Origin: Escherichia coli
GTDB lineage: Bacteria; Pseudomonadota; Gammaproteobacteria; Enterobacterales; Enterobacteriaceae
Assembly: GCF_003334315.1 (NCBI RefSeq)
Contig: NZ_QOWR01000010.1
DNA length: 64,000 bases
Reading direction: 5' to 3' (one strand)
The translations under genes and the position numbers were made by a program. The notes under the pieces were generated by a model that had not been told where the DNA came from, did no database searches, and worked only from the letters and a program-made list of their open reading frames with translations. How positions within the stretch are numbered: position 1 is the stretch's first letter; each line of letters begins with the position of its first letter. Positions 14,743 to 17,966 of the stretch are shown here, in pieces.

Positions 14743-15786
14743 TTAACGCTTATCCGCCACCAGTTTGAGCGCGTGTTCCAGCACGTTAATGTCAGCACCC
14801 GCTTTATGGGCATTTTCACTTAAATAACGCCGCCACTGCCGCGCGCCAGGAATACCCTGGAACAAGCCCAGCATATGCCGGGTAATATGGCCGAGATACG
14901 TCCCCTGGCTGAGTTCACGCTCAATGTACGGATACATGGCGCGCACTACCGCCACCGGATCGGCATCGGTATCCGAGGAACCAAAGATCTCCCGGTCTAC
15001 CGCCGCCAGAATACCCGGATTCTGATACGCCTCGCGCCCGACCATCACGCCATCCATATGTTGCAAATGCGCTTTAGCTTCTTCCAGCGACTTGATGCCA
15101 CCGTTAATCGACATCGTCAGATGCGGAAAGTCACGCTTCAGTTGATACACACGCGGATAATCGAGCGGCGGGATTTCACGGTTTTCTTTCGGGCTTAACC
15201 CCGAAAGCCAGGCTTTACGTGCGTGGATGATGAACATCTCACACTCGCCTTTGCCGGAAACGGTGTTGATGAAATTGCAGAGAAATTCATAGCTGTCCTG
15301 GTCATCGATGCCAATACGCGTTTTCACCGTCACCGGAATCGACACCACATCGCGCATCGCTTTCACGCAGTCGGCAACCAGCTGCGCATTACCCATCAGA
15401 CACGCACCAAACATGCCGTTCTGCACCCGGTCAGACGGGCAGCCGACATTCAGGTTGATCTCATCATATCCGCGCGCTTCTGCCAGCTTCGCACACTGCG
15501 CCAGCGCCGCCGGATCGCTACCGCCGAGTTGCAACGCTACCGGATGTTCTTCTTCACTGTACGCCAGGTAATCACCTTTACCGTGAATAATCGCCCCTGT
15601 GGTCACCATTTCGGTATACAGCAGCGTATTGCGGGAAAGCAGACGCAAGAAATAGCGGCAATGTCTGTCCGTCCAGTCGAGCATTGGTGCAACGCTAAAC
15701 CGACCACTCCAGTGAACGTCAGTTTTTTCAGGCATTGCGCTGGTTTGGTTGATTTTTTGCATTTCAGAATTACCGTGCATTTTCAA
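14743..15786 (-). CDS. dusA: tRNA-dihydrouridine synthase A, DusA
   Basis: ORF track (347 aa); TIM-barrel Dus family; exact start may be 2 codons downstream. Confidence 0.9.
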
Positions 15787-16067
15787 ATGTAGAGATTATT
15801 TTATCGATATATCATGGAGTTATGTTATTCAGCATCACTGTTCAGGAGGCTCAATAACGGGGTACTATACCATAACAACAGGAAGCGCCTGTCTCATTGC
15901 AAAAGAAAAATGAGATCCTCTCAAGGCATGAAGCTCTCACGAAGTGAAGATCTAATCTTATTAGATGTTAGCGTTGTGAAAAGCAATGATAAACAATACA
16001 GATTCGACGATAAATAAAAATCACACATTAAACTCCGGTGATATCTCTCCCTGCTAATAGCACTGAT

Positions 16068-16100
16068 AGAGAAAAAAGAACCCAATAAGCATTGGGTTCT
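16068..16100 (-). terminator. rho-independent terminator downstream of the yjbL/yjbM ORF (agaacccaat-gctt-attgggttct then T6 on the minus strand)
   Basis: 10-bp stem and T-run read from the sequence. Confidence 0.7.
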
Positions 16101-16140
16101 TTTATGTAATACCTTTCATACCATCGAAGAACTTCACATA

Positions 16141-17133
16141 TTATTTCTCCGATTTAACCCCGAATAAATCATAAATTAATTTAGAAGTACCTGTATATAT
16201 TTTAATCTTTTTCTTTGAGTTTGGGTCAAACGACTTAGCAAAGTCAATTAATTTCGGTGCAGCATCTCGCATTTTGCTTAAAATATCAGGGGCGAGCGTT
16301 CCTTCATTCACCAGATGTGACATCTTATCCAGATAGCCATCAAAATTCATTTCTCCCCCATCTGCCAGACGCTTCATTTCTCCCAGGTACTTCTTCATAT
16401 CACGTTGAGATAACTCTTCAAACTGAGCTGTCAGATAGTTCCCATTATGATCATTAATATTCACTTTTTCTGCTCCTGCTAAATCTGTGTAGGCACTAGA
16501 GTATGAAAGTGAAATCAACAGCGAAGCGAATAATTTTAAGCTGTTGTCATCATATTTCTGACATGCATTAACAAACGTTAAAAAACCAGAACCTATTGCT
16601 TGCAAATGTATATTCGCTAAAGGTTCATTATCTTTAGATTCCTCATAAAATAGCTGAACCGTGGAGGGAAGGCCATTCTTGGTTTCTACATCAAAAGTAT
16701 ATCGTTCTATGGGCGTTGCATCTTTATTACCCTCAGTATTACATATACTATTAACCGCGAAATGAAAAATAGCCCGGTCAACAACTGATGCAATAAAGTC
16801 ACGATCGTTTAATTCCTCATCAGTGCAATCTGCAATATACTTATTAACCCACTCTTTGAGATTAGTTATTTGCTCAATTAAAAACACATTTTTTTTACGT
16901 GCATGCCATAAATTATGAGTGATTCTTTGAATAAACAAATCTATTTTTGCAATAATTATATCCCGATGACGCAGCGCTGCATAATCAATAGATTTACCAT
17001 ATATATTATTTAATTTACCTTTGATTGAACCTCTATTATCTAATTTATCTTTGATTGCATCTTCATTATCGAATTGATTTGAATTGAGTGTTTTATTAAA
17101 GTATCCAGTTGCACCGGGTATTATCTTCAACAT
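16141..17133 (-). CDS. yjbM: uncharacterized AT-rich protein; one continuous 330-codon ORF spanning the locus that I remember K-12 annotating as two genes, yjbL and yjbM
   Basis: ORF track 16141..17133; assignment by synteny (between zur and dusA), not by sequence memory; contains an A8 tract at codons 80-82. Confidence 0.6.
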
Positions 17134-17450
17134 GATTCATCTACCTTTTTTGTCGTACCGTGTCCTCCTTATAATTCTTTTGCCATCTGGTCACTATCAA
17201 AAATCGCTCATAATTTCTGAACTACAGGTATGCGTTTAAACCCAGTTAAATAAATAGCGAGTTAACTTGAAGCAATTTATTTAAAAATGAATTATTAATT
17301 ATTATCGTGTTGATAATGGTACGACAAGGCAACATAACACCTTACCTACAAAACAGAAAATCAACATTACGGCAACAATAAGGGTTCTCGGTGTTTTTCC
17401 TGGAACATGGTAAAGTAAGGACATTCTTAACCCCCACTTTGAGGTGCCCG

Positions 17451-17966
17451 ATGGAAAAGACCACAACGCAGGAGTTATTAGCGCAGGCTGAAAAAATCTG
17501 CGCGCAGCGTAATGTGCGCCTGACCCCACAGCGCCTGGAAGTGTTGCGCCTGATGAGTCTGCAGGATGGCGCTATCAGCGCTTATGATCTGCTTGATTTA
17601 CTGCGCGAAGCTGAACCGCAAGCCAAGCCGCCAACGGTTTATCGCGCGCTGGATTTTCTGCTTGAGCAAGGTTTTGTGCATAAGGTGGAATCCACCAACA
17701 GTTATGTGCTCTGTCATCTGTTCGATCAGCCCACCCATACGTCAGCCATGTTTATTTGCGATCGCTGCGGCGCAGTGAAAGAAGAGTGTGCAGAAGGCGT
17801 GGAAGACATTATGCATACGCTGGCGGCAAAAATGGGGTTTGCCCTGCGGCATAATGTGATTGAAGCACATGGGCTCTGTGCGGCATGTGTAGAAGTGGAA
17901 GCGTGTCGTCATCCTGAACAGTGCCAGCATGATCACTCTGTGCAGGTGAAAAAGAAACCGCGTTAA
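17451..17966 (+). CDS. zur: zinc uptake regulator Zur (Fur family, 171 aa)
   Basis: ORF track 17391..17966; ATG at 17451 gives MEKTTTQELLAQAEKICAQRNVRLTPQRLEVL... Confidence 0.93.
   Translation: MEKTTTQELLAQAEKICAQRNVRLTPQRLEVLRLMSLQDGAISAYDLLDLLREAEPQAKPPTVYRALDFLLEQGFVHKVESTNSYVLCHLFDQPTHTSAMFICDRCGAVKEECAEGVEDIMHTLAAKMGFALRHNVIEAHGLCAACVEVEACRHPEQCQHDHSVQVKKKPR

Follow-up and report, generated by a model that had tools for sequence, protein, structure and literature searches.

The window analyzed here—the whole 64,000-nt stretch of Escherichia coli DNA—contains, on its minus strand, an uninterrupted 330-codon open reading frame (ORF) at 16141..17133, located between dusA (14743..15786, minus strand) and zur (17451..17966, plus strand), as the initial annotation had described. 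In the ORF listing, the frame begins with an ATG, encodes 330 aa, and ends with a stop codon at 16141-16143; on the basis of the ORF, a Pfam match, and RefSeq entries, the product is a full-length DUF2713 protein, the unsplit form of K-12 yjbL and yjbM, and the gene is referred to below as yjbLM. dusA was placed from the annotation of near-identical strains, and the zur start at 17451 was inferred from a 516-nt annotation; the order zur–gene–dusA is the orthologous position of K-12 yjbM. The run of eight T's that had been pointed out at 16889-16896 on the plus strand is indeed present in the sequence, and is an A8 homopolymer on the coding strand, where codons 79-86 read CGT AAA AAA AAT GTG TTT TTA ATT. 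The run thus comprises codons 80 and 81 and the two first bases of codon 82 (R79 K80 K81 N82), and is both the site of the K-12 frameshift and the site of recurrent +/-1 length changes described below.

The GC content over about 15850-17350 is 0.30-0.38, with flanks of 0.51-0.57, bearing out the AT-rich, horizontally acquired look first ascribed to the region. The AT-rich divergent intergenic region common to zur and yjbLM (17134..17450) is the counterpart of a K-12 "promoter island" of 526 bp between zur and yjbL, which three methods predicted to be foreign and which was bound by H-NS in all ChIP studies considered (PMC3661553, Table 1); the gene is probably foreign in origin. Two weak sigma-70-like matches were found in this region on the minus strand (17327..17298 and 17200..17171), with no excess of promoter-like matches in 17134..17450 over shuffles. 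The claim that the gene has its own terminator also stood, in that an intrinsic-terminator-like hairpin on the minus strand (16064..16103), with a 13-bp stem, a 4-nt loop, and then a T-rich tail, lies ~38 nt past the stop; the scan for such sites found one, vs 0.7 expected in shuffles. In strain F467, whose locus is 99.9% identical, an IS1 element is inserted in the zur-side promoter region, ~200 nt upstream of the intact gene (L030 1686-2383).

Comparison with K-12 places the break exactly at the tract. MG1655 (NC_000913.3) lists two genes between zur and dusA—that is, yjbL (b4047, 84 aa) and yjbM (b4048, 235 aa)—matching the two-gene annotation given initially. An A7 run in K-12 aligns exactly where the 330-codon ORF has A8; the upstream K-12 frame (MLKI...HARKKMCF*) ends after 84 aa, precisely the termination predicted for the loss of one A, and beyond it 246 codons stay open as far as the normal stop. 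The window therefore carries in unbroken form a gene that K-12 has in two pieces, as had been proposed, and yjbL and yjbM are, judging from the alignment, two fragments of one gene left by a -1 frameshift. The two alleles align end to end with 94% DNA identity. Besides the A tract, they differ at ~60 SNPs and by a 6-nt deletion that stays in frame, so K-12 is a different allele, and not simply the A8 allele minus one A. The split itself is not new, having already been flagged by the RefSeq pipeline: PGAP labels the locus as one frameshifted DUF2713 pseudogene in K-12-derived, BL21, and many other assemblies, and the intact protein is listed as a "DUF2713 family protein" (WP_000912575.1 / WP_000912573.1) in strains that are 99.8-99.9% identical. 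New are the population picture of the tract, the demonstration that yjbL and yjbM make up one domain, and the fragment shape of the existing Pfam and PHROG models.

The product had initially been described as having no recognizable motif. In fact, it shows a significant HMM match to Pfam DUF2713 (PF10897; E=8.6e-140; aa 95-330; model positions 2-235 of 235), making it a member of this family, and the description holds only insofar as DUF2713 is a family without an assigned function. Two PHROG profiles, likewise with function unassigned, cover the protein in pieces—PHROG 28007 (40 positions) at the N-terminus and PHROG 29005 (246 positions) further on. Both the latter and the 235-position Pfam model begin just past the tract; having the length of the K-12 fragment, these models describe a pseudogene fragment, not the whole protein. 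A profile search run exhaustively against 1.84 billion representatives returned only 58 matches, which included, besides fragments, eight distant paralogues (300-430 aa, identity 18-24%), and the paralogue matches cross the tract (profile position about 45 to 250). Only K63, W76, and F123 are invariant in the family alignment, the first two lying upstream of the tract and F123 downstream, and the best-conserved family motif, AK[IL]D-F-Q-IT--LW--S-K-V-LI, surrounds the tract. Thus, with the best conservation around the tract and the paralogues aligned across it, the frameshift cuts a conserved helix of one domain.

A structure prediction, which had been proposed as a check, was obtained using the paralogues, and the AlphaFold model (pLDDT 70, pTM 0.70) shows residues 1-53 as disordered, ahead of a body made mainly of helices plus one small sheet; the part of the proposal aimed at fold relatives yielded none for the 330-aa product, and no match to it was found in NCBIfam, in PADLOC, or in a PDB sequence search. 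The N-terminus, predicted to be disordered (aa 1-53, pLDDT <50), carries a decapeptide repeat, D-A-x-K-D-K-L-D-N-x, encoded by a 30-nt tandem repeat of 2.4 copies identified by TRF (17005..17075, minus strand). Alignments showed that the copy number of this repeat varies in frame among alleles, giving classes of 318/320, 328/330, and 338/340 aa, with 3.6 copies in strain E15 (locus L009 1348-1455). A second run, a G5 on the minus strand (GAT GGG GGA GAA; 16354..16358), is replaced at the same site by G8 (GAC CGG GGG GGG) in the 340-aa allele class (L009, L018, L019, L023, L017), which is compositionally unexpected in a gene of 35% GC, and by G9 in strain 503025, where it constitutes a second frameshift.

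A word-indexed search returned 139 clusters, the named ones of which are all from E. coli except for one partial Klebsiella pneumoniae sequence, and Shigella members were present among the AlphaFold database matches. Scans of species-representative genomes, by orthologue alignment and by paralogue alignment, confirmed no further member; one of the paralogues (P0144) was not found at the DNA level in complete E. coli genomes, and another (P0151) was not found in plasmids. The gene is best explained as an E. coli-restricted, accessory member of the DUF2713 family. Between alleles, dN/dS is 0.4-0.6 at a dS of 0.1-0.14, rising to 0.6-0.9 against divergent alleles, and the A7 clade has too few substitutions for an informative dN/dS; by the between-allele measures, the gene is fast-evolving and highly polymorphic.

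To describe the tract in the population, 5426 complete E. coli genomes were sampled, the counts being of assemblies, among which laboratory K-12 and B derivatives are over-represented. The first 12 tract-bearing alleles sampled all had the same 43-nt context around the run, so exact matches to this context with each run length were counted by word-11 blastn. The locus was matched in 4299/5426 genomes, leaving ~1100 without a match. The exact context was found with A6 in 15 genomes, A7 in 2236, A8 in 932, and A9 in 13, so that the tract is A7 in MG1655 and ranges from A6 to A9 across strains, its length having changed repeatedly on identical allele backgrounds, in line with the variability that had been anticipated. 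Because the tract varies and K-12 carries A7, the two readings that would have argued against the initial annotation—an invariant tract and an A8 run in K-12—both fall away. The A8 form encodes 330 aa, and A7, A6, and A9 all lead to truncation at about codon 84. One of the A6 entries, an assembly of DH5alpha, probably reflects an error. Roughly 42% of complete genomes are out of frame at the A run, and the broken A7 form is the majority form at yjbLM, most strains carrying a broken copy. Two further classes, together ~830 genomes, have no such run: a sister allele with CGT GAA AAA AAT (G + A7), which is in frame (~655 genomes), and alleles of roughly 70% identity without a run at codons 80-82 (~178 genomes); the sampled members of these run-less classes were intact in 4/4 cases. 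Two of the ~70%-identical alleles (L014, L015) contain another in-frame A8 further downstream, at gene nt about 702-712.

The run has changed length repeatedly. A K-12-like and a window-like haplotype can be told apart by two SNPs located 21-30 nt upstream of it; the K-12-like one has A7 in about 1901 genomes and A8 in 71, the window-like one A7 in 335 and A8 in about 861 (about 1901 and about 861 being totals minus the measured minority classes); all four combinations of haplotype and tract are thus present within 30 nt. Reading of the full locus at 24 loci gave closely matched pairs. Apart from the tract, E15 (A8) and strain 190 (A7) differ by 0 SNP over ~1 kb, as do SCEC020001 (A8) and 120899 (A7), and O121 RM8352 (A8) differs from K-12 (A7) by 1 SNP over the same distance, with the three backgrounds being mutually 16-50 SNPs apart. 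A7 on the E15-type haplotype was found in 29 genomes of diverse sources and is therefore not a single-assembly artefact, and the A8 state in O121 was found in at least six assemblies. Furthermore, O121 (A8) has four derived sites in common with K-12 (A7), UTAK-12 (A7), and MB52 (A6), and ARS-C101 and O103:H2, both A7, have the ancestral bases at these four sites. This division of derived and ancestral sites requires at least two tract changes within the K-12-type allele, and the A8 of O121 may be a reversion from A7. Counting the B/ATCC 8739, MB52 (A6), and O91 (A9) lineages, we infer from these sequences that slippage occurred independently five times or more in the 20 tract-bearing alleles, although short gene-conversion tracts could lie behind a few of the changes. 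As a recurrent evolutionary event, slippage at the run has strong support. In none of the sampled A7 and A6 alleles (0/12) was a second lesion found, and restoring the tract to A8 gave a full ORF in each; the absence of second lesions is weak evidence, because each allele class has diverged by only a few SNPs.

At the tract position, paralogues and sister alleles have Ser/Arg-Glu-Lys, with S-E-K in the more distant alleles and the paralogues. Given a Glu codon at position 80 in these relatives, the A8 run arose by a G-to-A change (Glu80 to Lys) in GAA-AAA-AAT. The presence of a run is unsurprising, since 26% of dinucleotide shuffles of this AT-rich gene contain an A/T run of at least eight; what goes beyond chance is that the run is polymorphic. 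The run was absent from the sampled sister and outgroup alleles and from the paralogues, so neither an unexpected length nor selective maintenance of the tract was found across the family.

The only other homopolymer of at least eight in the window, an A8 at 56190-56197 on the plus strand, provided a control. It lies in an ORF (54981..56555) identified as espL4, a homologue of the ShET2/EspL-family effectors, by Pfam Toxin_15 (E=5.8e-96) and RefSeq naming. Like the yjbLM run, this run occurs in an AT-rich accessory gene, has the same codon pattern (in espL4, GAT AAA AAA AAT), and is A8 in the intact form and A7 in the frameshifted form. Its exact A8 context was present in 3073/4092 genomes; in a sample of 40 rows taken at even spacing, about 7 were one base shorter, and the two of these that were read (C7 and NCTC9064) are A7 and annotated as frameshifted. 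The two genes differ in their majority forms, which is the intact A8 in espL4 (3073/4092) and the broken A7 in yjbLM (2236 vs 932). With the same A8/A7 polymorphism present in espL4, recurrent frameshifting is not special to yjbLM. No behavior distinguishing yjbLM from runs of equal length was found in this comparison, which comprises the single control espL4 and an inspected part of its one-base-shorter class.

Overall, we consider it probable that the tract is an ordinary homopolymer hot spot that repeatedly inactivates a dispensable, H-NS-bound accessory gene. According to this explanation, the G-to-A substitution (Glu80 to Lys) closed the interruption in the ancestral GAA-AAA-AAT, leaving eight A's in a row by accident, and replication slippage at the A8 would then have removed or added one base many times independently. 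As the gene would be dispensable under most conditions, the broken A7 could persist and become the majority form. The gene has also been inactivated in other ways, by the G8-to-G9 change in strain 503025 and by an IS5 insertion, and the ~1100 genomes that lack any match point the same way. Function would be lost again and again over evolutionary time, in principle reversibly, with no regulated or selected switch and hence no adaptive switching.

The initial annotation had suggested a slipped-strand ON/OFF switch, and a genuine contingency locus would differ from a hot spot in that the A tract, together with the G8 in some alleles, is kept because stochastic ON/OFF expression is advantageous under fluctuating selection by host, phage, or competitor, with A7 as "phase OFF". 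The locus has the anatomy for it, namely a frame-setting repeat inside the ORF and a tract that is polymorphic and homoplastic among close strains, and in these respects—an in-frame homopolymer, +/-1 changes that toggle the full-length product, and homoplastic length—yjbLM resembles the contingency loci of Haemophilus, Neisseria, Campylobacter, and Helicobacter. The four lengths found for the tract, its five or more independent changes among 20 alleles, the otherwise intact A7 and A6 alleles, the possible reversion in O121, and the second polymorphic homopolymer (G8/G9) in the 340-aa class, with its compositionally unexpected G8, are all consistent with such a locus, and the high allelic diversity, the dN/dS of 0.4-0.6, and the variable N-terminal repeat resemble those of genes under conflict or diversifying selection. 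However, yjbLM differs from the same loci in its short tract of eight A's, a length at the level of composition (reached in 26% of shuffles), its recent origin from an interrupted sequence, and its mismatch-repair-proficient host; in E. coli with functional mismatch repair, eight A's make a short tract for high-frequency switching, and phase variation there normally operates via invertible elements or Dam methylation. The run derives from a single substitution and is absent from the four sampled intact sister and outgroup alleles, and the A8 control in espL4 behaves alike. Irreversible inactivation also occurs, an IS5/ISKpn26 element splitting the yjbLM gene in strain SCPM-O-B-9427 (L031 657-1637), and the gene is silent in K-12 (PMC3661553, PMC9841429). 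The evidence thus fits a generic mutational hot spot at least as well as an ON/OFF switch, and a contingency locus at yjbLM is considered unlikely. Fast, selected switching, if true, would make yjbLM an unusual contingency locus with a mechanism rare for E. coli.

In a more specific form of the switch, yjbLM would be a true slipped-strand phase-variable gene, slippage under fluctuating selection tuning the ON/OFF state, the repeat number and, in some alleles, the G8 run of a protein that evolves fast and may be secreted in the manner of an effector, with K-12 being "phase OFF"; this is regarded as somewhat more doubtful still. A distant 397-aa paralogue (P0144), on a metagenome contig (L024 1187-2380, 3842-4777), lies near a gene that joins a SopD-type N-terminal region to pentapeptide repeats; this neighbor of one paralogue and the polar, disordered N-terminus hint at a type III effector, as a lead only, to which none of the tests made lent support. 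The yjbLM gene is flanked by housekeeping genes, and espL4, at 39 kb away, does not amount to linkage; no similarity of the yjbLM product to a known effector was found in fold or sequence, that to SopE/BopE being at noise level. A KfrA_N gene also lies near the 397-aa paralogue, in an effector-like, possibly plasmid-borne context.

That A7 alleles still yield a functional product, either by transcriptional or -1 ribosomal slippage restoring ...RKKNVFLI... or through YjbL and YjbM acting as separate polypeptides, is improbable. A -1 slip of the P-site tRNA-Lys on AAA-AAA-A, or one extra A in the mRNA, would recreate the A8-encoded protein exactly, and the downstream frame is open in all sampled A7 and A6 alleles; a GUG also lies 2 nt past the run, and the stop codon of yjbL and the beginning of the downstream frame overlap. 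Seven A's are, however, below the run length for efficient slippage in E. coli. Programmed -1 frameshifting was considered and rejected as unlikely, because there is no SD-like sequence in the 20 nt upstream to act as a stimulator and no downstream RNA structure, the 100 nt downstream folding with z = +0.46 vs shuffles. In its A-rich slippery run, where a -1 change joins two frames, yjbLM is like dnaX, IS1 insAB', and Shigella mxiE, but it differs from these in having no stimulatory SD or structure, in a two-frame state that is derived and strain-specific, and in a downstream part that is negligibly expressed in K-12 (PMC9841429). Indeed, YjbM abundance was reported as 0.002 ppm, with no SD (PMC9841429). 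The two-frame arrangement was not found to be conserved among homologues, the tract-less alleles and the paralogues being single ORFs, and the single-ORF arrangement is ancestral. Furthermore, separate YjbL and YjbM fragments are unlikely to fold, because the frameshift cuts the most conserved helix of the family, between the invariant W76 and F123.

It is most improbable that the tract differences are homopolymer sequencing or assembly errors. In favor of errors are the low counts of A6 (15) and A9 (13), a DH5alpha assembly with A6 in place of the A7 expected of K-12, and the many long-read assemblies among the complete genomes. Against errors, the A7 and A8 classes are large (2236 and 932) and follow lineages: K-12 and B derivatives are all A7, at least six O121 assemblies have A8 and several O91 assemblies A9, and 29 diverse genomes have A7 on the E15-type haplotype. 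The MG1655 reference is itself A7 and is, in effect, already confirmed.

The practical value of the analysis lies mainly in annotation: MG1655-based resources split one gene in two, and Pfam DUF2713 and a PHROG family were built from a fragment. Functional work is best carried out with an A8 or tract-less allele, such as that at 16141..17133. The ~42% of genomes that are out of frame and the espL4 pattern serve as an example of silent accessory genes being lost repeatedly through short homopolymers, and the population picture provides a baseline for judging claims of phase variation.

In the literature, a search for "DUF2713" returned no paper, and most literature on "yjbM" concerns an unrelated ppGpp synthetase of B. 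subtilis. For the E. coli genes, yjbL and yjbM have been handled as a young two-gene operon (PMC12218254), and a "response regulator" label has been cited for YjbL (PMC12871917). A point mutation in yjbM from laboratory evolution, when introduced alone, gave a growth-rate recovery of ~1% (PMC2784333).
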